NCBI GenBank assembly: GCA_001029675.1
Contig: CP011210.1
Coordinates: forward strand, 581,663-645,662
Length of the DNA: 64,000 nt
From: Candidatus Beckwithbacteria bacterium GW2011_GWC1_49_16
Lineage (GTDB): Bacteria > Patescibacteriota > Microgenomatia > UBA1400 > CG1-02-47-37
Direction of reading: 5' to 3'
The notes under the pieces are model-generated. The model saw only the letters and a list, made by a program, of their open reading frames with translations, was not told the DNA's origin and ran no database searches. The position numbers and the translations under genes are program-made. Below, in pieces: positions 28,797 through 56,184 of the stretch (positions are counted from its first letter, which is position 1; every line of letters begins with the position of its first letter).

Positions 28797-28801
28797 AGTC
28801 T

Positions 28802-35822: not shown

Positions 35823-37291
35823 CCGAAGTATTGGTAAACGGTAGCCAGGCCGATCAAGTTAAGCCCAATGGCGGCGGCGATGATCAGGCGGGACAAAACC
35901 GGGTAGTGTTTTTTGGCGACTAGCTGACTTAAACCTAAAACCAAAAAAATCATCTGACCGGCGACTACCGGGAGTAAATAGCGGCCTTGGATGCCGTAGA
36001 TTTCTCCTGAAGCGGCAAAGATCTTAAAATCATTTAAGACCACCACTGCTAAATGCGATAAAACCACTAAGCCCAAAAAACCCACCTGGCGGCGGAAAAG
36101 TTTTGTTTGGCGGGCGAGTTTAAAGCCTAAAGCAGCCAGCCCGGCGGCGGCGGCCAGAACAACCAGTTTTAAAAGCCGGTAAACCCAAAGAGGCAAGGTG
36201 GCTTCCAGCCAGCCAAAAACGCCCCAGTACCAAGGGAAAACCTGGGCCAGATGCCCGGGAGCGGTGGCGGCTAAATAGTCTTTAAACTGAAAAAAGATTT
36301 TACCGGTAAACAAACTTTCGAGGAAAAATTGAGCGTGATAGGCGTATTCGTTGAGGTTGGTAAGATACAAAAGCTGGTTACTTAAAAAGTTATTGCTGGT
36401 TATCAGGCTGGTTAAGGCCGCGGGCAGAAGAGATAAAATGGCCACAAGAACAAAAATAGCCGGCAAGATGAGTTTAAGCCGGTTTTTTTTAACCAAAAAA
36501 ACTAGCGTAAATGGTAAGACGATTAAATCCGGTTTGATTAAAACAGCTAAAAACCCGGTTGCCAAAGACCATCTAAACCAAGGCCTTTTTCTGGTTTTAA
36601 GAAAATTTAGGCTCAAGAAAATAAAGGCGGTGGTAACCAGGACTGCCAAGGGGTCGTAATGGACGCCCACGCCGATAAAGCTTAGGGTGGGCTGGAAAGC
36701 AACCAGAGCCGCCGCGGCCATCGCTAGATCCAGACGTCTGAAAACTAACTGGGCGGTTTGATAGGCAAGGTAAACCGTGGCCAGCCCGGCTAAAACAGAA
36801 AAAAACCTGACCAAAAAAAAGCGCCAAAGAAATGATTGAGACTTGACACTCAAATAAAAGGGCGTGGCTAAAAAGTAGTAAAGCGGGGGGCGCTTTAAGG
36901 ATTTTTGTTGGCTGTTGGGAAGGAAAACCGACCGATCAGATTGAGGGATGTTTTTAATCGCTTTAATCCAATTAGATTGATAACCTAGCCAAACAGGGTG
37001 AACGATTTTCCAGTTAAAATTTACCAAACTGGAAACCGTCAAAGCTTCCTGAGAGGTAACTAATTCCCGGCGCGGGTGGGGCCTTCTGCCTTTTTCGGCT
37101 ATAAACTGGACGATGCTAAAATGGCTGGGTTCATCGGGAACTTGAAAGATGGGAGTTAATCCCATCCAGGCAAGACTTTTAATCAGGACGACCACCAGTA
37201 AAACTTTTAACGCTTTAGGCATTTTTGGGTGAGTTTGACGCTTAATAAAATTATACTCGCCAGATAAGCGAAAAGAACCGGGGCTAACCAA
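35807..37291 (-). CDS. DUF2142-family polytopic membrane protein (GT-C-like)
   Basis: FQVPDEPSHF, the N-terminal PDE..H motif shared with its tandem paralog. The likely start is the internal MPKALKV. Confidence 0.5.
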   Translation of the reverse strand: MVSPGSFRLSGEYNFIKRQTHPKMPKALKVLLVVVLIKSLAWMGLTPIFQVPDEPSHFSIVQFIAEKGRRPHPRRELVTSQEALTVSSLVNFNWKIVHPVWLGYQSNWIKAIKNIPQSDRSVFLPNSQQKSLKRPPLYYFLATPFYLSVKSQSFLWRFFLVRFFSVLAGLATVYLAYQTAQLVFRRLDLAMAAAALVAFQPTLSFIGVGVHYDPLAVLVTTAFIFLSLNFLKTRKRPWFRWSLATGFLAVLIKPDLIVLPFTLVFLVKKNRLKLILPAIFVLVAILSLLPAALTSLITSNNFLSNQLLYLTNLNEYAYHAQFFLESLFTGKIFFQFKDYLAATAPGHLAQVFPWYWGVFGWLEATLPLWVYRLLKLVVLAAAAGLAALGFKLARQTKLFRRQVGFLGLVVLSHLAVVVLNDFKIFAASGEIYGIQGRYLLPVVAGQMIFLVLGLSQLVAKKHYPVLSRLIIAAAIGLNLIGLATVYQYFGWVWS

Positions 37292-38799
37292 ATTCCTTTG
37301 GCAAAAAAGGGTTTGTATTGGCTAGCCTGGATGATAAAAACGCTTAAACTGGTAACATCATAGTAGGCGCTGGCGACGACAAACAAGGCAATTAGATTAA
37401 GAGCCAAAAACCAGAGGGATAAAATTAACAGCCAGTATCGGGCGACCCGACGGCCAAAAAGAGCAAAAACGGAATTTACCCCCACTGCCAACAAAATCAT
37501 CTGGGCGGAGATGACCGGGAAGTAGTAACGGCCCTGGACGCCGAAAGAAAAGCCGTTGTTTCTGGTAAAGGAAAAGTCCCAGATAAAAAGAGATAAAAAA
37601 TAACCTAAGGCGGCCCACGCAGTCAGGCCTAAAAGAAGAGTTTGTTTGGTCCATTGTTTATTTTTAATTATGGAAATTAGCTTAATCATTAAGCCCAGGC
37701 CGGAAATTGCCAAAAGGCGCATCAGGATGCGGTTGATGGCTCGAGGCAAAACCACCCCCAGCCAGTTAAAGACTCCCCAATACCAAGGTAAAACTTCACG
37801 GACGGTGTGGGTCAACGTTGCTTTAAAATGCTGCCATAAAGTCAGATCGGGTAAAACCCGATCGGCCCTAACTTTAAAAGTCAAATAGGGCAACTGGCCG
37901 CTAAAGAATATTGCCAGCAAATTTTTGGTTCTGGCCGGAGACAAGACTAAGGCCACTAGTAAAACCAAAGGCAACAAGGCTAGATACTGAAGCGTTTTTT
38001 TCCTGTTTTTGATCAAAGCGGCCACCAGTGCCGGTACAACCAGGGTGAAGGCGATAAAAAACTGCTGTTTGTTAATTAGCCCAACCCCCAGGACTAAACT
38101 CAACCAGAGAAAGTCTCTGCGCCGCGGCAAGGCGGCAATTTTAAGCGAGAGATAAATGACGGCGGTATAGAGAAGGTTATGGAGATTGTCGCTGGTGACG
38201 CCGGCGGAAACAAAACTTAACATGGGGTGGAAACCGGCCAAAATGGCAGAAGTTAGAACCAGAAACTGATTTTGAGGAAAAATGAGTTTAGCGGTTAAGT
38301 AAACCAGCCAAACCATGAGCAGATGAGCGGCTAGCCAAAAGAGCCGGACGGCAAAGACGCGGACAAAAAGGTCGGCTGGGTAAAAAAATTTATAAACCAG
38401 CGCCGAGACTTGATAGAAAAAGTGAGGGTAGTAGGCAGACTCGCGGATGACAAAATTTTTCCGCGTAGAGAGGGGCAGAGATTTTATTTCTTCCTCTTGG
38501 GGGCCGGTTAAATTGTCTGAATAAGGCAGACGGTACTCGGGGTGAAAAGTAAACTTATTGTTGCCCTTTTCATCTCTTTTAGTGCCCAGGATAGTGAGTG
38601 AAGTATAGATTTCTTCGGTCATGTCCGGGTAGCGGCCGTGGCGGGTTAACTCCCCGCCTTCGGCGATAAAAGCCACATGGCCAAAGTGGGCCTGCTCGTC
38701 GGGAAAGTGCCACAAGGGCACCAAGAGCGACCAGGCAAGGAATTTGATTACCACGGCTAACCAAACTACATTAATCACCCTTGATTTTTTCAATGTCAT
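37207..38799 (-). CDS. DUF2142-family polytopic membrane protein (GT-C-like), paralog
   Basis: WHFPDEQAHF motif; 530 aa, highly hydrophobic. Confidence 0.5.
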   Translation of the reverse strand: MTLKKSRVINVVWLAVVIKFLAWSLLVPLWHFPDEQAHFGHVAFIAEGGELTRHGRYPDMTEEIYTSLTILGTKRDEKGNNKFTFHPEYRLPYSDNLTGPQEEEIKSLPLSTRKNFVIRESAYYPHFFYQVSALVYKFFYPADLFVRVFAVRLFWLAAHLLMVWLVYLTAKLIFPQNQFLVLTSAILAGFHPMLSFVSAGVTSDNLHNLLYTAVIYLSLKIAALPRRRDFLWLSLVLGVGLINKQQFFIAFTLVVPALVAALIKNRKKTLQYLALLPLVLLVALVLSPARTKNLLAIFFSGQLPYLTFKVRADRVLPDLTLWQHFKATLTHTVREVLPWYWGVFNWLGVVLPRAINRILMRLLAISGLGLMIKLISIIKNKQWTKQTLLLGLTAWAALGYFLSLFIWDFSFTRNNGFSFGVQGRYYFPVISAQMILLAVGVNSVFALFGRRVARYWLLILSLWFLALNLIALFVVASAYYDVTSLSVFIIQASQYKPFFAKGIWLAPVLFAYLASIILLSVKLTQKCLKR

Positions 38800-38844
38800 G
38801 GTAAAATTATATACTGGCGTGAGCCAAAAACTAAATTCAGTGAC

Positions 38845-39789
38845 TTGGCCCTTATGAAATTAAAATCTCTTTCAATAGTTGTACCCATTTTCAACGAGGC
38901 GGAAAGCATCATCCCTTTGTGCGATCAACTAACCGAAAACCTCAAGGTCTCAAGAACAAAATACGAAATTATTTTGGTCAATGACGGGAGCAACGACGGC
39001 AGCCAAGAAAAGATTGATGCTTGTAAAAAAACCTGGCAAAATGTGGTCGGCCTAAGGCTAAAAAGGAACTTAGGCAAAGCTGCGGCTCTACAGCTCGGTT
39101 TTGCAAAAGCTAAAAATGAAGTAATTGTAACTATGGACGGAGATTTACAAGATGATCCTAAAGAACTCAAAAAGTTACTTGTCAAACTTGATCTAGGCTA
39201 TGATTTGGTTATTGGCTGGAAAAAAAACCGCCAAGATTCTTTCACTAAGCGTCTTAGCTCAAGGCTTTTTAACTTGATAACCAACTTAATCTTCCGGCTT
39301 AACCTTCATGACTATAACAGCGGCTACAAAGCGTTTCGGGCAGAGTCGATTAAAAGAATTAGATTTTACGGAGAGTTACACCGCTTTATTCCAATCTTAG
39401 TGGCAGATAAAGGCTACCTAGTAACTGAGGTTCCGGTACATCACAGAAAAAGAAAATTTGGTAAATCGAAATACGGGTCCGGGAGATTTTTCCACGGCCT
39501 TTTTGATTTGACAACAGTTTTATTTTTAACTAAATTTCGCTTTAGACCACTCCATCTATTTGGTTATGTGGGGCTGGTATTTTTCCTTTTAGGAACCATT
39601 GGTGGTGGCTACTTAACTTGGCTTAAGTTTGTTTACGGTCAGGCAATTGGGCAACGACCGCTGCTGCTTTTAAGCTCGCTGTTGATTATCGTCGGCATTC
39701 AAATCGGGATTACTGGACTTTTAGGGGAATTGATTGTGGCTACGTTTTTAAAAGATGAACACCAGGAACTATCAGAAACACACCAGTAA
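38845..39789 (+). CDS. polyprenol-phosphate glycosyltransferase (GT2; ArnC/GtrB-like) with two C-terminal TM helices
   Basis: LSIVVPIFNEAESI...ILVNDGSNDGS...VVTMDGDLQDDP; C-terminal membrane hairpin. Confidence 0.8.
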   Translation: MALMKLKSLSIVVPIFNEAESIIPLCDQLTENLKVSRTKYEIILVNDGSNDGSQEKIDACKKTWQNVVGLRLKRNLGKAAALQLGFAKAKNEVIVTMDGDLQDDPKELKKLLVKLDLGYDLVIGWKKNRQDSFTKRLSSRLFNLITNLIFRLNLHDYNSGYKAFRAESIKRIRFYGELHRFIPILVADKGYLVTEVPVHHRKRKFGKSKYGSGRFFHGLFDLTTVLFLTKFRFRPLHLFGYVGLVFFLLGTIGGGYLTWLKFVYGQAIGQRPLLLLSSLLIIVGIQIGITGLLGELIVATFLKDEHQELSETHQ

Positions 39790-40342
39790 AAATTTCCTAC
39801 AAAAACTTTTAATAGGCAATTTCTATCAAAGGCTGTTAACTGTTGTGGCTAAAGTTAATATTGGTCGGATTTTAGACGCTGGTTGTGGCGAGGGCTTTAC
39901 TCTAAAAAGACTTAAGGAAAAAAATATCGGCAACTACCATGAGGGAATAGATATTTTAAGGACAGCCATTAAGCTGGGCCGGGAACTCAACCCCGATATT
40001 AAATTTTCCCTGGGAAATATTTATCACTTGCCGTATGAAAATAATTCCTTTGATCTGGTTTTATGCAATGAGGTTTTGGAACACTTGTCTAACCCAAAGG
40101 CAGCCCTCAAAGAAATTATCAGAGTGTCAAAAAAATACTGTTTAATCTCGGTGCCGAACGAACCCTGGTTTAGACTGGCCAATTTTCTGCGTCTGAAAAA
40201 CCTCAGCCGACTAGGAAACGATCCTGAACATATCCAGCATTGGTCAAAAGGAAGCCTGCTAAGTTTATTAAAAAAAGTTAGCCTCACTCCCATAGAAGTA
40301 AAATTACCTTTTCCTTGGATTCTGGTTTTAGCAGAAATTTAG
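39755..40342 (+). CDS. class I SAM-dependent methyltransferase
   Basis: ILDAGCGEGF motif I; DLVLCNEVLEH. Confidence 0.65.
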   Translation: MNTRNYQKHTSKNFLQKLLIGNFYQRLLTVVAKVNIGRILDAGCGEGFTLKRLKEKNIGNYHEGIDILRTAIKLGRELNPDIKFSLGNIYHLPYENNSFDLVLCNEVLEHLSNPKAALKEIIRVSKKYCLISVPNEPWFRLANFLRLKNLSRLGNDPEHIQHWSKGSLLSLLKKVSLTPIEVKLPFPWILVLAEI

Positions 40343-41073
40343 CTGACGGGGTTGTTCTCTAGGCTGACCAAGCGGATGCTATCGACACCTTTGATCGCTT
40401 TAAGATTTTGCATTAGGGTTTTGGGGTCGGTTTCAGGCTTAAGGGTAATGTTGTAGGCCAGTTCAACCGTCTTGGCTTGTTTGAAGCTGGTAAGATTCAA
40501 TAGTTGATGATTTTTCAGGTGGCGGGTAAAGAGCTTTAAAATTTTGTCGGTGGATGAGTGCTCGGGATAGTGAAAGGTTAACAGGTGGTCAGAAGCGGTG
40601 ATGGAACCGAAGCGGTAGCGGGTCATGAGTACAACAGCCAGGGAAATAAACAAGGTGCTGACAACGGCAATGGTGTAGTTGTTGGTACCCACGGCCATAC
40701 CGGTGATGAGAGCAATAAAGACAAAAGCGATATCGCGGGCGTCTTTGACGGCGGTTCTAAAACGGATGATGGAAAAGGCGCCGAAGAGCGAAAATGCCCG
40801 GGCTAAAGAATTGCCGACGATCATCATTAGGATCGAACCGGCCGCGGTCAAAAGCGCCAGGGTAAAAGTGAATGAGGCTGAATAAGACAAACCCTTATGG
40901 GTGCGCTGGTACACCAGAGCGACGGCGACTCCCAAAAGCAAACCAAAAAGAATGTTGAAGACAATTACCGGTAAAGGGTAGTCGAGGCTGGCACCGGTTA
41001 AGGTGAAAAACTGATTCATAAGCTTTAGTCGTTTTCTTCGGCCACTATACCACAGGCCTCTAAACTCAAGCAA
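40339..41073 (-). CDS. DUF4956-like integral membrane protein
   Basis: Four to five TM helices; SIIRFRTAVKDARDIAFVF motif. The likely start is the internal MNQFF, leaving almost no overlap with the VTC gene. Confidence 0.45.
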   Translation of the reverse strand: MLEFRGLWYSGRRKRLKLMNQFFTLTGASLDYPLPVIVFNILFGLLLGVAVALVYQRTHKGLSYSASFTFTLALLTAAGSILMMIVGNSLARAFSLFGAFSIIRFRTAVKDARDIAFVFIALITGMAVGTNNYTIAVVSTLFISLAVVLMTRYRFGSITASDHLLTFHYPEHSSTDKILKLFTRHLKNHQLLNLTSFKQAKTVELAYNITLKPETDPKTLMQNLKAIKGVDSIRLVSLENNPVS

Positions 41074-41759
41074 TACTTGGACAGAGATTGGCGGGGCAGG
41101 TCGAAAGTTTTAACCACCCCGGTCAAATAGTCTGGGACGCGGCCGGAAAACTTTAACTCCATGATAGCGTGGTCGGGAATGACTTGAGTCAGGCGAGGGG
41201 TGGCAAAAAGGTCGTGGCTTAATACCGCTTGGATTTGGTAATCAAAGGTGAGGCGGAAATTAGGATAAAAAGGGTCGATTAAAGGCTGGCGCAAGTAAGA
41301 AACCAGGATGGCCGGTTGGAGACGGTAAGCGACCAACTGGTGGTAAAACCGGTCTAAAGTACCGCTTTCGGTTTGGGGATTTGAACTAGACAGGCTGTCT
41401 TGGGAGCTTAAAAGTTTTTGGGTTTTGTCCCAGCGCAGCTGGGCGCGTTCTTTGGTTAAGAAGTCACCATACTTATATTTGATTTCCCAAAAAACCGGCG
41501 TTGAGGCGGTGGCCTTTTGAGAGTAGGTCCTTAAGCGATACTTGACCCTGTCTTTGACGCCGTATTGCTTTTGCCAGTAGGCTTGGTAGTCGGGAGTGTC
41601 CAGGTATAAAGTAGAGATGTAGTAGCTGGCGTCAGGTTTTTTTTGCGAGTGGCTGTCGGGAACCAGACCGCGGTTTAAAAGAAACTCCCTTACCTGGCGG
41701 TGCTGGTCCGGGGTTAATAGATACTTGTATTCCTGGCGCTCAAAGTTGGTTTTGATCAT
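41025..41759 (-). CDS. VTC-domain (CYTH-like triphosphate-tunnel) protein
   Basis: ERQEYKYLL (E.K motif), LYLDTPDYQAY and KDRVKYRLRTY match the VTC/polyphosphate-polymerase-domain pattern. Confidence 0.6.
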   Translation of the reverse strand: MIKTNFERQEYKYLLTPDQHRQVREFLLNRGLVPDSHSQKKPDASYYISTLYLDTPDYQAYWQKQYGVKDRVKYRLRTYSQKATASTPVFWEIKYKYGDFLTKERAQLRWDKTQKLLSSQDSLSSSNPQTESGTLDRFYHQLVAYRLQPAILVSYLRQPLIDPFYPNFRLTFDYQIQAVLSHDLFATPRLTQVIPDHAIMELKFSGRVPDYLTGVVKTFDLPRQSLSKYCLSLEACGIVAEEND

Positions 41760-43000
41760 AGTTGGCGGTTTAAATTATCAAAGTGGTCGAGCATCCACAG
41801 GCGGTAGTTTTTAATGTCAAGTAAATATTTAAGGTCGGGGTGGAACTTGTTGGTATCCTGCATCAGGGGAACTTGCAAACTCTGCCAGCTGTTTTCAAAA
41901 AATTCCAGATCTTGGCTGCGGTTGACCGGATCGTTGAGGTATTCTGCCAAGCGGCGGTTGCGTTCCGCTTTTACTTGAGGATCTTGCAGTAGTTTAATGG
42001 CCAGGGGGTTGAAAGTTTCGTCAATATCGACCAGGGTGGAGGTGCGGTCACCGGTATCCCAAGGGGTGAGAACAAATTTTTTAGTCTGGTGGTTGAAAAA
42101 CAAGCGGTTGTTGTGGCTTTTATCCTGATGGAGGCTGGCCATGAGTAAGCTGTGAACCCGCCAGGCAAGAAAGCTGTCTTTGTCTAGAAGTTGAAAAACT
42201 TCTTGGGCGGAAGAGCCAGGATCGTTGACTAAGTCTAAAAGCTGCTTTAAATATTTAAAGTCAGGATGGTTGGGGTCTTCCGGATAGGTACGCCAACGAT
42301 CGACGCTTTCGTAAATGTTGACATTCCAAGTTTCGCTTTGGTCTTTTTCGCCAAAAAGAGTCCCGGTTAAGTTTCTCCGGGTAAAAAAAGCTTCGTCCAG
42401 TTTCTCGGTAACATAATAAACCCCCTGGGATTGTTGGTTTATTGTTAAATTGGCAAACCAAGAATCAGGGGCCAATAAGCCTAACTTTCCTGCCCTGAAG
42501 TTGGCCAAATGTTCAAACACCAAGCCGCGGTCTTCGGGAATAATCAAATCCAAGCTGGCTAACCCGTTAAAGGTATCGCCGCCAGAAAAAATAATCCGCC
42601 AGGATTTTTTGGGCTGGGCCCAGTGGACCGCTCCGTTGCCGCGGAAACGCACCTTAACGTTGTGTTCCAAACCTTGAGGGTCGACGAAGACGGCCGGGAC
42701 TTCCTGATTATGTTCAATCACTACCGGAGTGGTGACGGGGTCGGGTAAAGACAACTGTAAAATTTCCAGGTTTTTACCTTTAATAAAAAGTTGATAGGTG
42801 TCTAAGCTATTGGGGTAAAAATAGTAATGAACAAAACCCAAGTCGGTGATCTTGGCAACTTTATTGATTAAGGTATAAGCCCAGAAGTTGTCGGTGAGGC
42901 GCTTGAGCCTAGGCTGGTGGCGAAAACGATAAAACAAATAACCGCCGGCGGCAGTGACGGCAAGCAGACTCAAACTTAACCAAAATAATTTTTTTTTCAT
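41756..43000 (-). CDS. CotH family protein (atypical kinase fold), N-terminal TM anchor
   Basis: QGVYYVTEKLDEAFFTRRNL N-lobe and HQDKSHNNRLFFNHQTKKFVLTPWD catalytic-loop region. AAA AAA AAA (A9) right after the ATG. Confidence 0.75.
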   Translation of the reverse strand: MKKKLFWLSLSLLAVTAAGGYLFYRFRHQPRLKRLTDNFWAYTLINKVAKITDLGFVHYYFYPNSLDTYQLFIKGKNLEILQLSLPDPVTTPVVIEHNQEVPAVFVDPQGLEHNVKVRFRGNGAVHWAQPKKSWRIIFSGGDTFNGLASLDLIIPEDRGLVFEHLANFRAGKLGLLAPDSWFANLTINQQSQGVYYVTEKLDEAFFTRRNLTGTLFGEKDQSETWNVNIYESVDRWRTYPEDPNHPDFKYLKQLLDLVNDPGSSAQEVFQLLDKDSFLAWRVHSLLMASLHQDKSHNNRLFFNHQTKKFVLTPWDTGDRTSTLVDIDETFNPLAIKLLQDPQVKAERNRRLAEYLNDPVNRSQDLEFFENSWQSLQVPLMQDTNKFHPDLKYLLDIKNYRLWMLDHFDNLNRQL

Positions 43001-43695
43001 TAAAATCCGCTGCCTATAAGTATTTCCCTAATTAAAAACCTGATAAACAGCCAACCGGTAGGCAAGGCTTTGGAGCCCGACTCGCCGCCGAGGCGGTTGC
43101 CCTCGCGGGTGGCGAGCTCGGCGATTTTAAGGCGTAGTTTTAGAGCCCTAATCGACATTTGGTACTCGATGACATAACCGGGGGCGTCGAGATCTAGCCT
43201 GTAAAAGGCCTTTTTGGTGATGGCCCGGTAGCCGTTGATGCTGTCAGTTAGTCTGCCGCCCCAAAATAGGTTAGCCAATAGAGTAAAGCCCTGGTTGGCC
43301 CAAGCCCTGAATTTTAAGACTTGGTCGTCTTCTTCGTTTCTGGACTCGGGCAGGAAGCGCGAGGCAATAGCTAAATCGTAACCCTGACCGAGGAGCTTTA
43401 GCAGTTTGGGAATATCCTGGGGGTTTTCGTTGCCGTCGGGGCTGAAAAAAACCAAATGCTGGCCGCGGGCTAGGCTAACCGCCAAACGGAAAGCCTCTCC
43501 CCGACCGGGTTTGATTTGGTTAATTAATCTAATCTTGTTTTTTTTGACAAATTCTTTGGTACCGTCGGTGGAGTTAAAATCAACCACAAAAGCTTCGTCG
43601 ACCTTACCAAAAGGAATTTTTTTGACTAGGGCTTTCATGCCGGTGATTTCGTTGCGGGTCAAAATCACCAGAGTGGTGTCAATTTTTTTAGCCAT
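43000..43695 (-). CDS. glycosyltransferase family 2
   Basis: LVILTRNEITG...VVDFNSTDGT motifs. Confidence 0.65.
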   Translation of the reverse strand: MAKKIDTTLVILTRNEITGMKALVKKIPFGKVDEAFVVDFNSTDGTKEFVKKNKIRLINQIKPGRGEAFRLAVSLARGQHLVFFSPDGNENPQDIPKLLKLLGQGYDLAIASRFLPESRNEEDDQVLKFRAWANQGFTLLANLFWGGRLTDSINGYRAITKKAFYRLDLDAPGYVIEYQMSIRALKLRLKIAELATREGNRLGGESGSKALPTGWLFIRFLIREILIGSGF

Positions 43696-44671
43696 GGGTT
43701 TTTTTATAATAGTCGATGACTTGGGGCAAGCCCTGGTTTAAAGTCGTTTCTGCCTTAAAGCCCAAAAGCTTTTGGGCTTTGCCGGCAGCGCAGTTTCTTC
43801 TTGGCTGGCCCGACGGTTTGGCTTGGTCAAAAACTATTTTAGTTTCGGTGCCGGCCAGCTTGACAATCAGCCGGGCTAAATCCCTGACGCTGATCTCTTC
43901 TTTGGTGCCAAGATTAATCGGATCAGGGCGGGGATATTTTTCTATCGCCAAAAGCATTCCCCTGACAATATCATCAATATAGATAAAGGAACGAGTGGCC
44001 GAGCCGTCGCCCCAAACCACTAGAGGGTTCTCGCCGTCAATCACCCTTTTGACTAAAGCCGGGATGACGTGGGAACTTTTGGGATCAAAGTTGTCTCTGG
44101 GGCCGTAGGCGTTGTAAGGACGAACAATGCCGACTTTGAGCTTAAACTCTTGGGCGTAAGTTTTGGCAAAAAGCTCGCCGATGCGCTTCCCCCAACCATA
44201 ACCGTAGTTGGTAATTTCCGGCTCATTGAGAAACCCTTCTGATTCTTGGGTGGGAAAGCTGCATTCTCGGGGATAGACACAAGCAGAAGAAACGTATAAC
44301 AACCTTTGGGGTGGATGGCTTTTGGCGGCGGCAAAGACATTGATGGCGGGCAGGGAATTTTCATATAAAAGCGTGGCCGGGTGAATTTGGTTATAGTGGA
44401 CGCCGCCGACATGGGCGGCCAGGTGAAAGATTAAATCCTGACCCTTGACTACTTTTTGGGCGGCTGCCGGGTTTTTGAGGTCGGCGGTGACCAGGTTGAT
44501 TTTGTCTTTGACTGCCGACAAAAACGGCGTTGGTTTCAAAGACAAGGTGGGAACGGTGACTTTGGCGCCAAAACCCACCAAGGCTTCAACTAAATGGGAA
44601 CCGATAAAGCCGGCGCCGCCGGTGACTAAAACGAGTTTATTTTTGAAAAAATTCATGGAATTTGTCGGCAA
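43688..44671 (-). CDS. NAD(P)-dependent epimerase/reductase, GDP-L-fucose synthase (Fcl/ColC)-like
   Basis: LVLVTGGAGFIGSH; YVSSACVYP resembles the Fcl GSSCIYP motif; YGWGKR (YxxxK). Confidence 0.55.
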   Translation of the reverse strand: MPTNSMNFFKNKLVLVTGGAGFIGSHLVEALVGFGAKVTVPTLSLKPTPFLSAVKDKINLVTADLKNPAAAQKVVKGQDLIFHLAAHVGGVHYNQIHPATLLYENSLPAINVFAAAKSHPPQRLLYVSSACVYPRECSFPTQESEGFLNEPEITNYGYGWGKRIGELFAKTYAQEFKLKVGIVRPYNAYGPRDNFDPKSSHVIPALVKRVIDGENPLVVWGDGSATRSFIYIDDIVRGMLLAIEKYPRPDPINLGTKEEISVRDLARLIVKLAGTETKIVFDQAKPSGQPRRNCAAGKAQKLLGFKAETTLNQGLPQVIDYYKKTHG

Positions 44672-45821
44672 TATATTCTACATCTTTTAGAGTCATGCCC
44701 GGGTGGCAGCCGAAGTAAAAGGCGCGCTGGTTTAAGTTTTTGGCTACCGGGTATTTATTTTCCAACCGGCCAAATGTTTTTTGATAGGCGGGTTGATTAA
44801 GAAGCGGCAACAACTCGCGAGTCTCGATGCCGTTTTTCTCCAGATAGATAATTAGGTCCCACTTGTCGATGTTTTTGTCTTTTAAGACTAAAGGAAACAT
44901 CATAAAGGCGTGAGTGAAGCCGGCAGGAATCGTCGGCAGTTGAAGTTTGTCTTCGAGTGGTTTTAAAAGTTTGATTAAAGCGGCTGCCAGCTTTTGGCGT
45001 TTTTTGATATTGACCTGATACTCCCCGGTCTTAAGCTGGCTTAAGCCGATAGCCGCTTCCATTTCGGTTAAGCGAAAATGGGAGCCGATCCGGTCAAAAC
45101 GAAAACGGTTTTTTAGAGCTTTTTTGAGTTTGGCCTGGTCATCATCGTCGATTGACAAGTAACTCTGGTGGCGGCCGTGGAAAATGTAGCTGCGGGCAAT
45201 TTGTTCCAAACGCTTAGAATTACCGGTTAAAAAGCCGCCGACGCCTGTGGGAAGAAGGTGGGCCACATAGGTAGAAAAGGCGGCTAAATCACCAAAGCTG
45301 CCTACTGGTTTGCCGGCAACTCCCACAAACATGGCGTCACAGGAATCTTCCAAAACTTTGAGCCGGTGACGGCGGGCCAGTTTTAAAATGGCCGGCATGT
45401 TGGCGGGCAGGCCCAAAACGTGAACGGGAATTAGGCCGCGGGTTTTTGGGCTTAGGTGCTTTAGTATTTGCTCGGGGTCGAGGTTAAAAGTATCGGGCTC
45501 AACGTCCACAAAGACCGGCTTTAGGCGCAGGCTATAGACAATGTTGGCGGTGGTGATAAAGGAAATAGCCGGCACCAAAACCTCGTCACCGTCCCGCCAG
45601 CCGTAGAATTCTTTTAGGGCGGCTAGCCCCGCCTGAAGGGCGCCGGTGCCGGATGAGGTAAAGATCGAGAAGCGACAGTGGTGGAGTTTGGCAAAGCTTT
45701 GCTCGAACTTTTTAATAAAAGGGCCATAGGTCAACCGGTTGGTGTCAAGCACCCGCTTAAGATAAGTTTTAGCTCGGGAGTTTAGCTTGATATCCCCGAC
45801 CGTGATTTGACGTTTAGTCAT
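44637..45821 (-). CDS. DegT-family PLP/PMP-dependent enzyme with the active-site Lys replaced by His (ColD/E1-like sugar 3-dehydratase candidate)
   Basis: AFSTYVAHLLPTGVGG aligns with SFYVTKNVATGEGG of the ArnB-like paralog, so K becomes H at the Schiff-base position. Confidence 0.65.
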   Translation of the reverse strand: MTKRQITVGDIKLNSRAKTYLKRVLDTNRLTYGPFIKKFEQSFAKLHHCRFSIFTSSGTGALQAGLAALKEFYGWRDGDEVLVPAISFITTANIVYSLRLKPVFVDVEPDTFNLDPEQILKHLSPKTRGLIPVHVLGLPANMPAILKLARRHRLKVLEDSCDAMFVGVAGKPVGSFGDLAAFSTYVAHLLPTGVGGFLTGNSKRLEQIARSYIFHGRHQSYLSIDDDDQAKLKKALKNRFRFDRIGSHFRLTEMEAAIGLSQLKTGEYQVNIKKRQKLAAALIKLLKPLEDKLQLPTIPAGFTHAFMMFPLVLKDKNIDKWDLIIYLEKNGIETRELLPLLNQPAYQKTFGRLENKYPVAKNLNQRAFYFGCHPGMTLKDVEYIADKFHEFFQK

Positions 45822-45834
45822 AAACCGGATTGTA

Positions 45835-47385
45835 TCATAGCTTATAGACTTTAAAGCCGGGGTTGAAATAGACCAGATTGAAATCCAGGGGTTGGTGGTT
45901 GACTTTGACCACTAAATAGTCGAAGGAGTAGAGGTTCTTCACTGCCAGAAAGTCGGCGCTGGTGAAATTGTCGTAACCCTTTAAAGCTTGCCTCCTTTGC
46001 TGCCAATCTATGGCGTACTGGGCGGAATAAAAAATTAAACCCCCGTCTTTGGCGCTGGAAACCAGGTTTCTTTCGGAAAAACTTCTGAAACCGGGAATTT
46101 CTGGAGGAGCTAGAAACACTGCTTCAACCGGCGAGTTGACTTTAGCCCAAACCTGAACGTCGAGCCAGTCATCTCTGCCTTTAAGGTCGACTAAGGGGTT
46201 AGGATAATGAAAATAATCTGGTAATTTGACCTGGGGCTTGACCAACACCAGAACAAAGAGAACTTGCGTCAAGACTAATATGAGAATATGGGCAGAAATG
46301 TCTTTTTTTGACTTGAGATTTAGTTTGGGCTTGAAAATAAATAAACCTAAAGGGAGTAGGCCGATGGCCAGAAAGTGCCACAGAGTCAGATGCATGCCCC
46401 AGAAATAAACACCGGTCAAAGCAACACCGGTCAGAATTCTAACCGGCCAAGAAGAGGCCATTAAGCAAAAATAGGCGGCTGCGGCAAAAGAGATCAGAGC
46501 GACAATAAAAACAAAACTGGCGGCTCTTAATAGCTGGAGTTGGATTAATTGGGGAGATGGTAGGAGTGAACTTATTATCAGGTGAAAAAGAAACAAGCCG
46601 GAACAAATAACCAACAAAAGCTTAATCGGCTTAAAATAGAGGCCGAAAATTTTTTTCTTTAAGGCTAACCAGGCTGTACCCAGAAGCGCTAGCCAAAGGG
46701 CAAAGTTGCCCCAGGCAGTCCAGGGCCAAAGATGGGGGAAACTATAAGTGCCGCGGCTTTCCAGGATGTCAAACCAGGCTTGATTGATGGATGGCAGGAA
46801 ACTGAAAAATCTATTACCACTGGGTTTAAAAAACAAGGCAAGCCAAAAAATTGCCAAGGGGATAGGGATGGTCGGGTTAATTAAAGCGGCCAATAAAATC
46901 AGCCCCAGGCTCGACCAGGACTTGCGTCTAAGCATCGAGGTTAACGCCAAAAGCGAAACAGCCAAACTTAGATCGCGGCTAATAAAGTAAAAATGATGCG
47001 ACAGGTAACCGATGCGGGCCAGCCATTTGGGGGCGATAAACAAAACCGCGGCCAGAAGGGCAATGGAGCGGGAGCGATAAATGGTAAACGCCAACCAATA
47101 AATTCCTAAATATAAAAGGTAAAGACTAACCAGATACAAGCCCAAAAACACCCAAGCGAGGCTGGCGCCGCTAATGGTTTTTAGCCAAACGATGACGTAG
47201 TTAAAAGGCGAGTAAAGATAGTGGGGCTGGTTGAAGTAGTAATCGTTTGGGTAGAGGGCAGGGTTTAGAAGTTTATTTAAATAAGGCAGGTAGTGATGGT
47301 GGTCTAAAACGTCAAAGTAATAGCCGTGAATCAAAACGCTGGCCAGAGTGATTAAAAGCAAGAATAAAAAGTCTTTTGGTTTCAT
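45835..47385 (-). CDS. polytopic membrane protein with a C-terminal roughly 130-aa soluble domain; function unknown
   Basis: 516 aa, at least 10 TM helices, no recognisable motif. Confidence 0.35.
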   Translation of the reverse strand: MKPKDFLFLLLITLASVLIHGYYFDVLDHHHYLPYLNKLLNPALYPNDYYFNQPHYLYSPFNYVIVWLKTISGASLAWVFLGLYLVSLYLLYLGIYWLAFTIYRSRSIALLAAVLFIAPKWLARIGYLSHHFYFISRDLSLAVSLLALTSMLRRKSWSSLGLILLAALINPTIPIPLAIFWLALFFKPSGNRFFSFLPSINQAWFDILESRGTYSFPHLWPWTAWGNFALWLALLGTAWLALKKKIFGLYFKPIKLLLVICSGLFLFHLIISSLLPSPQLIQLQLLRAASFVFIVALISFAAAAYFCLMASSWPVRILTGVALTGVYFWGMHLTLWHFLAIGLLPLGLFIFKPKLNLKSKKDISAHILILVLTQVLFVLVLVKPQVKLPDYFHYPNPLVDLKGRDDWLDVQVWAKVNSPVEAVFLAPPEIPGFRSFSERNLVSSAKDGGLIFYSAQYAIDWQQRRQALKGYDNFTSADFLAVKNLYSFDYLVVKVNHQPLDFNLVYFNPGFKVYKL

Positions 47386-47419: not shown

Positions 47420-48199
47420 ATGCGTAAAGACTACCTACCCGTGAATAAGCTCACGGCCAAAAAAACAGAGGCTAAATTCGTCGAAGATTTTTGGACCAAA
47501 AGGTGGCAAAAGCAAGCGCTCAAGTGGCAGGCCGCCAACATAGAGAACGAGGCCGAGTTTAAGGCTGTAAGTCGATACTTCAACCAACTGCCAAAGGGAG
47601 CTGGGATTTTGGACGGAGGTTGCGGCTTGGGGGTCTGGACTCGGTATTTTACCGACCGGGGTCATAAAACCGTGGGTTTGGATATCAGCCAAAAAACCAT
47701 TACCAGGTTAAAGCGAAACTTTCCCAAGTACAAATTTGTAGCCGGCGATATCCGCCGCCTGCCTTTTAAATCTGGCAGTTTTGATGCTTACTTTTCCTGG
47801 GGGACGTTTGAGCATTTTGAAGAGGGTCTGGGACTTTGCTTTGATGAAGCCTACCGGGTGCTTAAATCGGGCGGCCTGCTTTTGATTAGCGTCCCCTACT
47901 ATAACTTAAGACTGAGACTTAAAGACTCGTTGGTGCTGCCACCTGAAGGCAAAAAGATAAGATTTTACCAGTGGCGCTTGACTGCCAACGAGCTTAAAAG
48001 AGAGTTCTATATTCATGGCTTTAAAGTGGATACGGTCAGGCCGATTTACAAAGGCCACGGTTTATCCAGACTGGTGAAACATGATTTGGGGGTCGGACGG
48101 CAAAGTTTTCTTCACAAACCACTGATGGCGCTACTTTACCCTTTTATGCCGCCAGGCTTTGTGGCTCACATGCTGATCGCCGCCGCTTATAAACGGTAA
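47420..48199 (+). CDS. class I SAM-dependent methyltransferase
   Basis: ILDGGCGLGVW motif I. Confidence 0.65.
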   Translation: MRKDYLPVNKLTAKKTEAKFVEDFWTKRWQKQALKWQAANIENEAEFKAVSRYFNQLPKGAGILDGGCGLGVWTRYFTDRGHKTVGLDISQKTITRLKRNFPKYKFVAGDIRRLPFKSGSFDAYFSWGTFEHFEEGLGLCFDEAYRVLKSGGLLLISVPYYNLRLRLKDSLVLPPEGKKIRFYQWRLTANELKREFYIHGFKVDTVRPIYKGHGLSRLVKHDLGVGRQSFLHKPLMALLYPFMPPGFVAHMLIAAAYKR

Positions 48200-50391
48200 T
48201 CCCCTTCTTCTTCAAAGTCGATCTCGTTATCTATCAGCTGGTTGTCTTTGAAGATAAACTCTTTGCGGGGGAAAATTGGTTTTTTCAAGTAAGAAGCCAA
48301 GCCGATGTGGTTGTCGCTAATGGTATTGCCGCTGATTTCCGGCTGGCTTGAGTCTTTAACTGCTATACCCATGTTGCAGTTTTTGAAGGTGTTGCCGGTA
48401 ACTTTGGGGCTGGCGGTTTCACCTAAAGACAAACATTTGTCGCCGGCACCGTCAACCAGGTTGCCGGTTATATCGGGGGAGGCCGAACCAAAATCCATGC
48501 CGTCGTTGCCGTTTGATAAAAATCTGTTGCCGGCAACCAGTCCGGTGGCAAAATCGAGATCCAAACCGTCAAAATCGTTGTCGGCAAAAATATTGTTGCT
48601 AATGCTGACGTCGGCGTACTTGACGTTTAGGCCGTCGTCGCCGCGGTTGAAGCGAAAAGTGCTGCCGCTGACTACAATATTGTCGGCGCCATGGGCAGCC
48701 AAAGCGCCGCTAAAGTAAGCGCCGTTGACTATGGCCTCGCTGCCGTACTCGACCGTTACCCCGTTAAAGCTACTGCCGTTGGCTGACTCTCCCAAAACGG
48801 CAAAAACGCCCCAAGGTTTGTCTGGGTCTTGGGTGGTTAAAGTGGCCCCATTGGCGGTGACCGGGCTCAAGCTGACAAACGAGGCTCCCTCGGCAAAAGA
48901 CAGTCTGGCGCCGGGCAGAAGCCTAACCTGGTAGCCGGGAGGAATAACTCTGGTTTGATTGATTAAATGGGTGCCGGGGCCGAAAGTGAGTTGCTTAGGC
49001 GTCAAAAACAGCTGGTCAAAATCCGCAAACTCTGACTCGATGACGCTTTTGGCCGGGTCGGCGACGTCGATTGGCTCTGTAACCGGCAAAGGAAAACCGC
49101 TGACTTCATCGGGAAGGCTGTCTGAGTCAAGTTTTTGTTGAATTAATTGAAACTGGCTAATTAACTCTCGGCGGGTTTTTTCAAGCTGGCGCAAATAGCC
49201 GATGTTGGAGAAAAACTTTTTATAATCCTGAAAGACGGCGGTTTTGGTTTGGGCTGCCAGTTGGTCGTAGTATGCCAAATCATCTGCCAGGTTATCGGGA
49301 TTGTTGACATAAGCCGCCAAGATCTGGTTTCTTTTTGCCAGCCAGTCGGGATTTTTTAACACCCGGGAAGCTAAAGGATGATAGTTGGCCGGCCAACCCA
49401 CTCCCCCCAAGACGTCCCAGGGCATAACCATAAATTTGCCCAGGGCCGGATGCCAATATAAACGAAAATTGTGTAAGTGATCTTGATGGATGCTGCCCAT
49501 GAGTACCGAGTGCGCCTGCCAGGCAATAAAGTTATCGATATCCAAAATATAAGGCAAGCGGGTAAAAAACTCCTCGTCGGAAACGTTATTTAACAAATCT
49601 AAAAGCAAACTCAACTCGGTGTAGTTATCCTCGGCAAAAACTTCGTCCTGGCTGTACTTGCGCCAGAACTTTAAAGAAGCAAAGATGGGTTGTTGTTCCG
49701 CCAGCCTTACTTCCTGGTCGATTTCACCATAGAGATTGCCAATCGGCAAGTCGTTTTTTTCCAGAAAAGCCTCGTTCCACTGCTCGGTTTGCCAATAAAC
49801 TCCTTCGGTTTGGCCGTTAACTTTTAAAACCACGAATCGACTTTCGGGCACAATCAGCCCCATTTTTTTAGCCCGGTAGTTTGATAGTTCCTCAAGATAC
49901 ATGCCCCGATCTTCAGGGATAATCAAGTTAATGGCCGTCTGGCCAAAAAAAGGCTGGCCAGAACCAAAGTTAACTCGCCAAGATTTTTTGGGCCTGGTCC
50001 AGTGATCAAAATCGACGCCGCGGTAGCGCACTCTAACTTGATACTGTCTCCCCTCAAAATCGAAGCTGGCGGGGACAAACTGTTTGAACTTGTCGGCCAG
50101 AATGCCGCCGGTGGCCTTGGGGTCAGGCAGGTTGCGGTTCAAAAAAACATAGTCGTCCGGATTGAGAGTCAGTTCATAAACCGGCAACCCTGATGATTTA
50201 AACCAATAAGGCAAATAGAAAACGTCGGTCAATTTGGTTAAATAGGTGACGACGTTAGTTTGCCAACCAAAAGCGGTGGGGTTGTGGATTTTAATTAAAT
50301 AGATCAAACCCACAACGAGAATAATTGCTGTATACAAGAACAGTTTAAATCTATTTTTCATAGAAGCTAATTCCCCACTGTCGGCGTTCAA
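48187..50391 (-). CDS. CotH kinase-fold domain fused to C-terminal parallel beta-helix (PbH1) repeats; N-terminal TM anchor
   Basis: 734 aa. EGVYWQTEQWNEAFLEKNDL and HQDHLHNFRLYWHPALGKFMVMPWD (CotH). C-terminal repeats ...NGNDGMDFG...GNTFKNCNMGIAV...GNTISDNHIGLA. Confidence 0.75.
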   Translation of the reverse strand: MNADSGELASMKNRFKLFLYTAIILVVGLIYLIKIHNPTAFGWQTNVVTYLTKLTDVFYLPYWFKSSGLPVYELTLNPDDYVFLNRNLPDPKATGGILADKFKQFVPASFDFEGRQYQVRVRYRGVDFDHWTRPKKSWRVNFGSGQPFFGQTAINLIIPEDRGMYLEELSNYRAKKMGLIVPESRFVVLKVNGQTEGVYWQTEQWNEAFLEKNDLPIGNLYGEIDQEVRLAEQQPIFASLKFWRKYSQDEVFAEDNYTELSLLLDLLNNVSDEEFFTRLPYILDIDNFIAWQAHSVLMGSIHQDHLHNFRLYWHPALGKFMVMPWDVLGGVGWPANYHPLASRVLKNPDWLAKRNQILAAYVNNPDNLADDLAYYDQLAAQTKTAVFQDYKKFFSNIGYLRQLEKTRRELISQFQLIQQKLDSDSLPDEVSGFPLPVTEPIDVADPAKSVIESEFADFDQLFLTPKQLTFGPGTHLINQTRVIPPGYQVRLLPGARLSFAEGASFVSLSPVTANGATLTTQDPDKPWGVFAVLGESANGSSFNGVTVEYGSEAIVNGAYFSGALAAHGADNIVVSGSTFRFNRGDDGLNVKYADVSISNNIFADNDFDGLDLDFATGLVAGNRFLSNGNDGMDFGSASPDITGNLVDGAGDKCLSLGETASPKVTGNTFKNCNMGIAVKDSSQPEISGNTISDNHIGLASYLKKPIFPRKEFIFKDNQLIDNEIDFEEEGDYRL

Positions 50392-51412: not shown

Positions 51413-52471
51413 ATGACAATTATAATGAAAGTGCAGGAAAAAATCTTAAAAATTATGGCGGAACACCCTACGTTTATCATCGCCGAGGCGGGATCCAACC
51501 ACAACGGCGACGTCACCCAAGCGGTCAAACTGATCAGGGCCGCGGCTGACGCGGGGGCTGACGCGGTTAAGTTTCAAACTTTTACTGCTGGGCAGTTAAC
51601 GACAAAAAGTGGGCCGAGCGCTTCCTATCAAATAAAAAACACTAAAATAAAAAGCCAGTGGCAATTGCTTCGCTCAATCGAGTTAGATTATAAATGGTAC
51701 AACAAGCTAGTAAAACTCGCCAAAAAGTTGGGCATTATTTTTTTGTCTACCCCGCATGGATATATAGAGTCTGTGAATTTTTTAAAGGATAAAGTGCCCG
51801 CTTGGAAGACAGGTTCTGGGGACTTAACCAATCTTCCACTATTAAAATACTTAGGTGAGTCTGGCAAACCGATAATTTTGTCGACCGGGATGGCGACCGT
51901 CGCCGAGACCAGAGAAGCGGTTAAGACCATTGAAAAGACCGGCAACAGAAAAATTACCATTCTTCACTGCACCACTAACTACCCTTGTCCGCCTGAAGAA
52001 GCCAACGTGGCGGCGATTATGGATCTTAAAAAAAATTTCCCCCGCTACCGGATCGGCTTTTCTGACCACACCCTGGGGATGACGGCGGCGATCATGGCGG
52101 TGGCTTATGGGGCGGCGGCAGTGGAAAAACACCTCACCCTGGACAGAAACTTGCCCGGGCCGGACCAGAAAAACTCGCTTGAACCCGACGAGTTTAAACA
52201 AATGGTGAAGCAAATTAGGTTGGCAGAAGTTTTACGCGGCAGCGGCAAGAAAAGGCCTTTCCCCAGCGAGCTGATTATCGCCCAAATGGCCAGAAAAGCG
52301 GTGATCGCCGCGGTAGACATTACCAAAGGCACCAAGATCACCGCAGCGATGCTGACGATAAAAAGGCCGGCCAAAGGCGGTTTGGCGCCAAAGATGCTCG
52401 ATAACATCGTGGGCAAAACGGCCAAACGAAGCATCAAGGCTGACTCACAACTGAAAAAAGGTGATTTTTGA
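51413..52471 (+). CDS. nonulosonic acid synthase (NeuB/LegI/PseI family, with C-terminal SAF domain)
   Basis: FIIAEAGSNHNGD signature of N-acetylneuraminate-synthase-family enzymes. Confidence 0.85.
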   Translation: MTIIMKVQEKILKIMAEHPTFIIAEAGSNHNGDVTQAVKLIRAAADAGADAVKFQTFTAGQLTTKSGPSASYQIKNTKIKSQWQLLRSIELDYKWYNKLVKLAKKLGIIFLSTPHGYIESVNFLKDKVPAWKTGSGDLTNLPLLKYLGESGKPIILSTGMATVAETREAVKTIEKTGNRKITILHCTTNYPCPPEEANVAAIMDLKKNFPRYRIGFSDHTLGMTAAIMAVAYGAAAVEKHLTLDRNLPGPDQKNSLEPDEFKQMVKQIRLAEVLRGSGKKRPFPSELIIAQMARKAVIAAVDITKGTKITAAMLTIKRPAKGGLAPKMLDNIVGKTAKRSIKADSQLKKGDF

Positions 52472-54596: not shown

Positions 54597-54991
54597 GTCG
54601 ATTTAATAATTGGCAAGAACCAGAGTTTGACGCTCGCGGCATGACCCGCTGGCAATGGATTTGCCAGCATCACCAGAATTTAAAGCTGGGGGAAGGTAGC
54701 GACATTGGCGCTTTTAGCTACTTAAACGCCAAGCACGGGGTGGAGATTGGCGAAGAGGTGCAGATCGGCAGCCACGTCAGCATTTATTCGGAAAATACCA
54801 TCGATAATACCCATGGTAGAGTGGTGATTAAAAAGGGTGCCAAGATCGGCAGCCACTCGGTGATTTTCCCCGGAGTGACCATCGGCGAGAAAGCGGTGGT
54901 GGGGGCATTTAGTTTGGTCAAAAAAGACGTGCCCGCCGGGGCGGTAGTGGCCGGAGTGACGGCTAAGCCGCTTGAGCGGCGTAACCGGTAA
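54593..54991 (+). CDS. hexapeptide-repeat N-acetyltransferase (LegH/PglD-like)
   Basis: 132 aa; LbH repeats (IGEEVQIGSHVSI, IGSHSVIFPGVTIGEKAVVGA). Confidence 0.7.
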   Translation: MSRFNNWQEPEFDARGMTRWQWICQHHQNLKLGEGSDIGAFSYLNAKHGVEIGEEVQIGSHVSIYSENTIDNTHGRVVIKKGAKIGSHSVIFPGVTIGEKAVVGAFSLVKKDVPAGAVVAGVTAKPLERRNR

Positions 54992-55015
54992 ACAGTAATC
55001 GGTAATCAGTAATGA
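54988..55015. repeat. tandem heptanucleotide repeat (GTAAnCn) x4, ending in the ATG of the gene at 55012
   Basis: gtaaaca gtaatcg gtaatca gtaatga. Confidence 0.7.
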
Positions 55016-56151: not shown

Positions 56152-56168
56152 TCAGTAAACCGTAATTA
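56134..56168. repeat. tandem heptanucleotide repeat (GTAAnCn) x5, followed by degenerate copies up to ATG 56185
   Basis: gtaatcg gtaaact gtaatca gtaaacc gtaatta. Confidence 0.7.
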
Positions 56169-56184
56169 TTGTAGAATAGTAATT

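Follow-up and report, generated by a model that had tools for sequence, protein, structure and literature searches.

We report that a gene pair on the minus strand of a 64,000-nucleotide stretch of the genome of the uncultivated groundwater organism Candidatus Beckwithbacteria bacterium GW2011_GWC1_49_16 (GCA_001029675.1, CP011210.1, positions 581,663 to 645,662; the whole stretch is called the window below) encodes a DegT-fold protein with a histidine in place of the Schiff-base lysine, followed by an extended short-chain dehydrogenase/reductase (SDR) resembling GDP-L-fucose synthase (Fcl). The same DNA is found at positions 63000-126999 of LCOF01000001.1 (GCA_001001885.1, a genome of the candidate phyla radiation, CPR), and the locus is present in GCA_001774275.1 as well. 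We propose, with a probability of about 0.68, that the DegT protein is a pyridoxamine 5'-phosphate (PMP)-dependent C3-dehydratase of nucleotide sugars similar to ColD, and that together with the SDR it makes a 3,6-dideoxyhexose, best explained by a route through GDP-4-keto-6-deoxymannose. Most likely, the end product is a 3,6-dideoxy sugar that is displayed on the cell surface.

The active-site histidine

The DegT protein (394 residues, 44637-45821, minus strand; Pfam DegT_DnrJ_EryC1, 281 bits) has the fold and Pfam family of the pyridoxal 5'-phosphate (PLP)-dependent sugar aminotransferases but lacks the active-site lysine with which these form an internal aldimine. The AlphaFold2 model of the protein has a predicted local distance difference test score of 92.8. 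In the place of the lysine stands His188 (codon 45258-45260, minus strand), inside the active-site loop FSTYVAHLLPTGVGG (45234-45278, minus strand), which, with its GVGG motif, is the signature of the clade described below. Translation and alignment put this histidine at the position of His188 of ColD (WbdK; the GDP-4-keto-6-deoxy-D-mannose 3-dehydratase of E. coli O55 and Yersinia; PDB 2gms, 3b8x, 2r0t and 3gr9), His220 of E1 (RfbH/DdhC/AscC; CDP-6-deoxy-L-threo-D-glycero-4-hexulose 3-dehydrase; PDB 3bcx and 3bb8) and Lys186 of GDP-perosamine synthase (Per; PDB 3bn1, 3dr4 and 3dr7). The original prediction for this DNA, of a DegT homologue with histidine for the PLP lysine, is therefore borne out. 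The two paralogues in the window, one ArnB-like (32873-34075) and one PseC/LegC-like (55012-56151), group with Lys-type sequences.

Several alignments agree on the position. With HMMER, His188 falls on Lys186 of Per (3bn1; 3dr4 is the K186A mutant) and on the first histidine of the E1 segment YPAHHITMGEGG. In both E1 and ColD the catalytic residue is the first histidine of the pair, as shown by the mutant PDB chains, which change that residue: the E1 H220K entry (3bb8) reads YPAKH, and the ColD H188N (3b8x) and H188K (2r0t) entries alter the first histidine of the ColD SHH. BLASTP against full-length E. coli O55 ColD returns a gapless block over residues 77-256 in which query His188 lies on ColD His188; this ColD, and the ColC used for comparison below, are the genes of the E. 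coli O55:H7 CB9615 O-antigen cluster (NC_013941.1 2553701-2555787; our locus L090, 1702-3788). The lysines closest to His188 are K171 and K203, with none within 14 residues, and they are too distant for a small shift of the alignment to bring a lysine to the site. A shifted alignment, against which the original prediction had cautioned, is thus not what we find.

The histidine is also strongly retained. Of 120 homologues (48-100% identity) retrieved from 5.8 billion proteins, 118 have it, and so do 135 of the 150 top-scoring representatives of 50%-identity clusters in a library of 1.84 billion clusters, where Lys-type proteins appear only from about 190 bits down, save for one two-domain fusion. 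Given this conservation, His188 is neither a chance substitution nor a sequencing error, and it is under selection. An alignment of 49 sequences shows no variation at the cofactor-binding residues S57-G58-T59, D159 and S183. Replacement of the lysine by histidine is a hallmark of sugar 3-dehydratases (PMC8987622; bioRxiv 10.1101/2021.09.04.459008). Two homologues in the GVGG clade, P0160 and P0181, carry a cysteine and a glutamine, respectively, at the catalytic position, and may be inactive or perform another chemistry. In a further His-type homologue, P0149 (682 residues), an intein with PT-HINT and intein splicing domains is inserted exactly between EDS and C of the EDSC motif beside the cofactor-binding aspartate.

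E1 aligns with the query over the full length as a single block, with E1 Y217 and D194 matching query Y185 and D162. In the query, Q219, Y221 and a gap stand in the places of the E1 [2Fe-2S] ligands C251, C253 and C261, which the whole GVGG clade lacks as well; the equivalent of C193 (query C161) is the sole ligand kept. No gene for an E3-type reductase is seen near the DegT gene, and relatives of the query are linked to Gmd, the GDP-mannose 4,6-dehydratase, rather than to CDP-glucose genes. We rejected an E1-type mechanism because the cluster cysteines are lacking, and therefore expect a ColD-like recycling of PMP. The check for E1-type cysteines that the original prediction had proposed points to a ColD-like and not an E1-like enzyme.

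Placement between dehydratases and aminotransferases

Similarity searches gave no clear class. The best NCBIfam match of the DegT protein is RfbH/E1 at 208 bits, under the cutoff of 423, and no ColD model is among its NCBIfam matches. As a classifier, raw pairwise and clade-profile scores against PDB chains left the question undecided (Per 146 and 269 bits, E1 144 and 253, ColD 120 and 221), and fold comparison with Foldseek did not discriminate, with Per, ArnB, ColD and E1 all at template-modelling (TM) scores of 0.84-0.87. We used a tree and competing hidden Markov models (HMMs) instead.

Neighbour-joining (NJ) distance trees (200 bootstraps) were built from up to 115 sequences. Besides cluster representatives, these included ColD, E1 and Per, both paralogues from the window and Lys-type DegT proteins of related loci, the sampling of the Lys type being limited. 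The His-type sequences, including ColD and E1, are monophyletic in 81% of bootstraps, with Per-like aminotransferases as their sister, and in 78% when the catalytic and GxGG columns are deleted and 18 Lys-type sequences included. In 87% and 82% of replicates, query, E1 and ColD stand together with no Lys sequence among them. A place among the ordinary aminotransferases, a possibility that the original prediction had raised, is thus not what the trees show, and the grouping holds even minus the catalytic column. The competing models agree: an E1/ColD-type HMM scores the query at 359.7 bits, about 30 bits above the Lys-type HMM (329.2 bits), and 73 of 83 clade members prefer the dehydratase model. 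F242 and P310 are common to both His clades and not found in the Lys group. The segment that follows the active-site loop matches ColD in length, as seen in the gapless BLASTP block, and near residue 216 alignments to aminotransferases need gaps (phmmer) or break (clade profile).

The query's own branch of the His clade comprises 82 representatives and has the motif FSTY[VI]AH....GVGG, in which GVGG (or GIGG and similar) stands where aminotransferases, ColD and E1 carry GEGG or MEGG. ColD and E1 fall in a group of 15 members, set apart from the GVGG group in the NJ tree with weak support. The query is thus best placed in a large sister clade of ColD and E1 that is itself uncharacterised, and is neither ColD nor E1. 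The claim of a ColD/E1-type dehydratase is upheld insofar as the protein shares their His clade, but it is an orthologue of neither enzyme.

The comparison with ColD illustrates both sides of this. Like ColD, the query has a DegT fold with histidine at position 188 next to a small residue on its N-terminal side (Ala187, against Ser187 in ColD), no iron-sulfur cysteines, an insertion of equal length after the active-site loop and an Fcl-family reductase as its partner, and many of its relatives are Gmd-linked. It is nonetheless only 27% identical to E. coli O55 ColD, lies in a separate clade, has GVGG for MEGG and a single histidine for the His-His pair, and is not an orthologue of the characterised enzyme; for comparison, characterised C3-dehydratases of the ColD group share 62-67% mutual identity (PMC10440746). 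The loci differ as well: the SDR beside the query is not a ColC orthologue, there is no Gmd in the window or its 10-kb flanks, a polyprenyl-phosphate-type glycosyltransferase (GT) of family GT2 follows, and the genes are not in an O-antigen cluster.

Per is the closest solved structure (TM 0.87/0.93, about 29% identity), and its substrate, GDP-4-keto-6-deoxymannose, is the one that we propose for the query. This closeness in sequence and fold is one argument for a protein that is still an aminotransferase, for instance of the GDP-perosamine synthase kind, in which His188 would shuttle protons, the cofactor would be held noncovalently and the product would be a 4-amino-4,6-dideoxy sugar. In the same direction, clade members bear the public names 'perosamine synthetase' or 'aminotransferase', and SpnQ, a His-type enzyme, can transaminate in the absence of its reductase (PMC8987622). 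Per differs, however, in having Asn185-Lys186 where the query has Ala187-His188, in lacking the segment of about 15 residues after residue 216, and in lying outside the His clade that unites the query with ColD and E1. A double change at these two positions of ColD, S187N/H188K, turns that enzyme into a perosamine synthase. The histidine is a mark of dehydratases, and the E1 H220K variant is non-catalytic (PMC8987622; bioRxiv 10.1101/2021.09.04.459008). The partner of the query is a reductase that requires a keto group, replaced elsewhere by a C-methyltransferase needing an enolisable 4-keto sugar, and not by an N-acyltransferase. The public names are automatic, and the genuine ColD of E. coli O55 is likewise labelled 'DegT/DnrJ/EryC1/StrS family aminotransferase' by RefSeq/PGAP (ColC being a 'GDP-L-fucose synthase family protein'). 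This generic name, together with the lack of a ColD model among the matches, may explain the aminotransferase labels across the His group. We consider amination very improbable.

Gene partners and the predicted pathway

The partner SDR (322 residues, 43688-44656, minus strand) starts at an ATG at 44656 that overlaps the DegT stop by 20 nt; the open reading frame (ORF) as listed begins at a TTG at 44671 (43688-44671, 327 residues), and the ATG is the likelier start. In the explanation that we propose, the two genes are translationally coupled. The SDR scores 193 bits against the NCBIfam Fcl model (cutoff 500), its best PDB matches are GDP-fucose synthases (160 bits), and it is 30% identical to Fcl (155 bits) and 28% to ColC (115 bits). 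It keeps the Ser-x-Cys, Tyr-x3-Lys and NxYGPxDNFxxxxSHVIPAL motifs of Fcl, with equivalents of Fcl Ser107, Tyr136, Lys140 and Cys109, and differs from both Fcl and ColC in its longer N terminus, which contains a dinucleotide motif of the classical form GGAGFIGS. At the position of Fcl His179 it has an arginine. In Fcl, Cys109 and His179 serve as the acid/base pair of the epimerisation. All 21 Fcl-like SDRs of our set with a Ser/Thr-x-Cys motif carry arginine or glycine at this position, and genuine ColC carries tyrosine. The loss of His179 fits a substrate with no need for C3 epimerisation, and C5 epimerisation is compatible with it either way. The protein is thus not Fcl itself, given the His179 replacement and the low score, nor an orthologue of ColC, with which the loss of His179 is the sole shared trait; the earlier description of a Fcl/ColC-like reductase stands as regards Fcl, genuine ColC being further away. 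A relative that stands after Gmd and a His-type DegT gene in another genome (locus L026) is 36% identical to it. We predict that the SDR is an NAD(P)H-dependent 4-reductase, and possibly a 5-epimerase too, acting on a 4-keto-3,6-dideoxy product.

The proposed chemistry draws mainly on the neighbourhoods of related genes. At E <= 1e-30, 1791 relatives are found among 50%-identity cluster representatives, and a pattern scan of 185,579 species genomes yielded 442 loci. The clade spans CPR bacteria, DPANN archaea, Planctomycetes, Elusimicrobia, Acidobacteria, Omnitrophota, Nitrospirales and others, and its cultivated carriers include Limnoglobus roseus (Planctomycetes) and Paenibacillus thailandensis. 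We clustered the ORFs of 74 loci containing the His gene. A Gmd orthologue lies at most six genes away in 27 of these and directly adjacent in 17; two of the orthologues were verified as bona fide (TIGR01472, 500 and 529 bits, cutoff 415). In 17 of the 74, the His gene directly adjoins a homologue (31-63% identity) of the window's Fcl-like SDR, and ten loci (L026, L048, L055 and L068 among them) combine Gmd, His-DegT and Fcl-like SDR, a trio that matches the logic of the colitose pathway. The order His-DegT, SDR, GT2 recurs in L009, L010 and L013, with a CotH gene next in L009 and L013. Fusions link the same functions: SDR-(His-DegT) in P0134, P0136 and P0146, as well as GT2-methyltransferase-(His-DegT) and (His-DegT)-GT4 proteins.

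In 15 loci, mostly of Acidobacteria, a TylC3-type sugar C-methyltransferase gene lies directly downstream of the His gene and is followed by SDR and GT4 genes. These cassettes (in L036, L032, L040, L043, L046 and L087, among others; domains Methyltransf_13, 23 or 14) are often preceded by genes for a Wzx flippase and a GFO/IDH/MocA oxidoreductase, with Gmd not far off at a distance of a few genes, an arrangement that suggests a branched 3-deoxy sugar. The partners of the His gene need a lasting 4-keto group, which favours dehydration over amination: a downstream 4-keto reductase makes sense only if the 4-keto group survives. It is from this context, with Gmd upstream and a keto-reductase downstream in the relatives, that we infer C3 deoxygenation by the DegT protein.

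Several observations weigh against a ColD-like dehydratase. The GVGG motif supplants a GEGG that is conserved in dehydratases and aminotransferases alike, the full-length identity to ColD is low, and GDP-perosamine synthase is equally close or closer by raw score and fold. The split between the GVGG and ColD/E1 groups is weakly supported (48% and 26%, in NJ trees only), we found no biochemically characterised member of the GVGG clade, and our literature search found no paper on this clade, nor on colitose in CPR, DPANN or Planctomycetes. As for gene context, there is no Gmd or other clear 4,6-dehydratase partner in the window or in 10 kb on each side, and the four closest loci (L001, L009, L010 and L013) show no Gmd, three of them being short or cut less than 10 kb from the pair. 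About one third of the loci are without a recognised sugar-pathway partner, many of these contigs being short. In Planctomycetes (L007, L008 and L012), a gene for a GT87 membrane glycosyltransferase ends where the His-DegT gene begins, with no SDR or Gmd within 10 kb in L007, and this arrangement fits a nucleotide-sugar model poorly.

The lack of a Gmd in the window had been part of the original prediction, and it holds. Four in-window SDRs considered as a hidden Gmd (7865-8854, 8808-9803, 20177-21031 and 56185-57225) were rejected, with Gmd-model scores of 49-84 bits or none; they resemble RmlB/UXS, GalE and PseB. The problem is softened by the 27 related loci that do have Gmd close by. A gene of the ManC mannose-1-phosphate guanylyltransferase type, recognised by its NTP_transferase and ManC_GMP_beta-helix domains, begins in the same island some 10 kb to the left of the window (L093, 20997-21113; near 52-53 kb of LCOF01000001.1). 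A different nucleotide is possible in this sub-branch, with the protein acting as a 3-dehydratase on a CDP-, dTDP- or UDP-4-keto-6-deoxyhexose to give a 3,6-dideoxyhexose of another series. The missing Gmd, the RmlB/UXS-like, GalE-like and PseB-like SDRs just named and the identity of the top NCBIfam match, a CDP-sugar enzyme, are consistent with this, as are four loci (L025, L026, L029 and L072) that hold a glucose-1-phosphate cytidylyltransferase and a CDP-glucose 4,6-dehydratase-like gene. Yet all four of these contain Gmd too, and Gmd is by far the commonest 4,6-dehydratase neighbour; the partner SDR is of a GDP-sugar type, the ManC-type gene lies in the same island, and E1-type CDP chemistry requires the iron-sulfur cluster that the query lacks. 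We therefore regard another nucleotide as unlikely.

The Planctomycete genes, coupled solely to a GT87 enzyme, and the loci with no recognised nucleotide-sugar partner could also point to a different PMP/PLP chemistry in the GVGG clade, acting on a 4-keto sugar or on a non-nucleotide substrate (epimerisation, isomerisation or a lipid-linked sugar). The clade-wide change from GEGG to GVGG and the clade's own invariant residues H215, R217, Y221, R239 and R250 would fit such an activity, and in the window the DegT gene itself follows a gene for a membrane protein with a DUF6798 domain. Against this, adjacency to Gmd and a reductase and the fusions to SDRs indicate a nucleotide 4-keto sugar whose keto group is retained, and 78-87% of bootstraps recover an ancestor shared with ColD and E1. 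We hold an altogether different chemistry to be very unlikely.

On the dehydratase reading that we favour, the mechanism can be modelled on ColD chemistry as described in PMC8987622 and PMC10440746. PMP would form a ketimine with the C4 carbonyl of an NDP-4-keto-6-deoxyhexose (NDP, nucleoside diphosphate), most likely GDP-4-keto-6-deoxy-D-mannose; His188 would take the C4' proton, with expulsion of the 3-hydroxyl; and hydrolysis of the resulting enamine would yield an NDP-4-keto-3,6-dideoxyhexose (GDP-4-keto-3,6-dideoxymannose) and ammonia. An amino donor, for example L-glutamate, would then re-aminate the PLP to PMP, since an E3-type reductase would find no iron-sulfur cluster in the protein. 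Reduction at C4 by the Fcl-like SDR, with or without C5 epimerisation, would give a GDP-3,6-dideoxyhexose, colitose or a stereoisomer. A GT2 resembling DPM1 and AglJ would probably move the sugar onto polyprenyl phosphate, from which the many GT-C enzymes of the island would take it up. The data show the histidine substitution and its conservation, the clade to which the protein belongs, the lack of iron-sulfur cysteines and the gene neighbourhoods; the chemistry, nucleotide, stereochemistry and further path of the product are predicted. The original prediction of a locus for a colitose-like 3,6-dideoxyhexose is thus supported in substance, with the activity predicted, and colitose as the specific stereoisomer is not established.

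The surrounding glycosylation island

The pair is part of a string of minus-strand genes, DUF6798-DegT-SDR-GT2-CotH-VTC-DUF4956, whose members overlap or are spaced by at most 13 nt. Upstream, 13 nt from the DegT gene and in the same orientation, lies the gene for a DUF6798 protein (516 residues, 45835-47385, minus strand; Pfam DUF6798, 43.6 bits), hydrophobic and apparently multi-pass, which is a candidate extracytoplasmic glycosyltransferase; its tie to the DegT/SDR pair is tentative. Downstream, the gene for the small GT2 (231 residues, 43000-43695, minus strand) overlaps the SDR stop by 8 nt. Its product resembles polyprenyl- and dolichyl-phosphate hexose synthases, matching AglJ (88 bits), dolichyl-phosphate hexose transferase and PpgS, each below its NCBIfam cutoff. 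A trio of CotH (41756-43000), VTC (41025-41759) and DUF4956 (40339-41073) genes, all on the minus strand and assigned by Pfam, prolongs the operon past the GT2. Two further CotH genes are found in the window (13431-15089 and 48187-50391), one of them fused to NosD/beta-helix repeats.

The window and its flanks form a very dense glycosylation island, with many genes for PMT_2 (GT-C), GT2 and GT4 proteins. Positions 1-31446 consist almost entirely of glycosylation genes, which encode five or more PMT_2 GT-C proteins, numerous GT2 and GT4 proteins, a Wzx-like flippase, a pair of ABC2-type transporter proteins (28068-29581) and an amidotransferase resembling asparagine synthase (29605-31446); the window contains no gene for a sugar nucleotidyltransferase. 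An Arn-like module follows at 32873-39789, with several PMT_2/DUF2142 GT-C membrane proteins between the Lys-type ArnB-like aminotransferase (32873-34075), which scores 359 bits with the ArnB model (cutoff 631), and an ArnC-like GT2 (38845-39789; 167 bits), and suggests lipid-linked amino-pentose or a similar modification in a CPR bacterium. On the other side of the pair lies a nonulosonic-acid cluster of the pseudaminic/legionaminic type (51413-60289). It encodes NeuB, Epimerase_2, a hexapeptide acyltransferase, the PseC/LegC-like aminotransferase, a PseB-like 4,6-dehydratase (302 bits, cutoff 408), GFO/IDH/MocA and EamA proteins, a CMP-sugar synthetase-like CTP_transf_3 protein and a short-chain dehydrogenase, as well as a degenerate DegT-like protein (52468-53541) with a weak N-terminal match only.

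We tentatively extend the proposal beyond this genome, in a form that we consider less likely than not. The GVGG proteins would be a distinct, ancient and very widespread His-type class of sugar-modifying enzymes with products other than the classical dideoxyhexoses of O antigens. In this bacterium, a 3,6-dideoxyhexose would be loaded onto polyprenyl phosphate by the GT2 and transferred outside the membrane by GT-C enzymes; in other phyla, the class would feed TylC3-type C-methyltransferases and give branched 3-deoxy sugars. We know of no lipid-carrier route described for any dideoxyhexose.

The predicted chemistry is itself known; what is new is the clade, its breadth, its systematic mis-annotation and the partners found in this genome. 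If our proposal is true, C3-deoxygenation is far wider than the few characterised ColD, E1 and SpnQ enzymes imply. The genes of this clade are uniformly annotated as aminotransferase or 'perosamine synthetase', with the consequence that amino sugars are predicted where deoxy sugars are likely made. The clade also constitutes a natural series of sequences bearing on the residues, besides the lysine-to-histidine change, that switch the DegT fold from amination to dehydration. For CPR bacteria, our findings point to a cell-surface 3,6-dideoxyhexose within an unusually dense island of GT-C, GT2 and GT4 enzymes.

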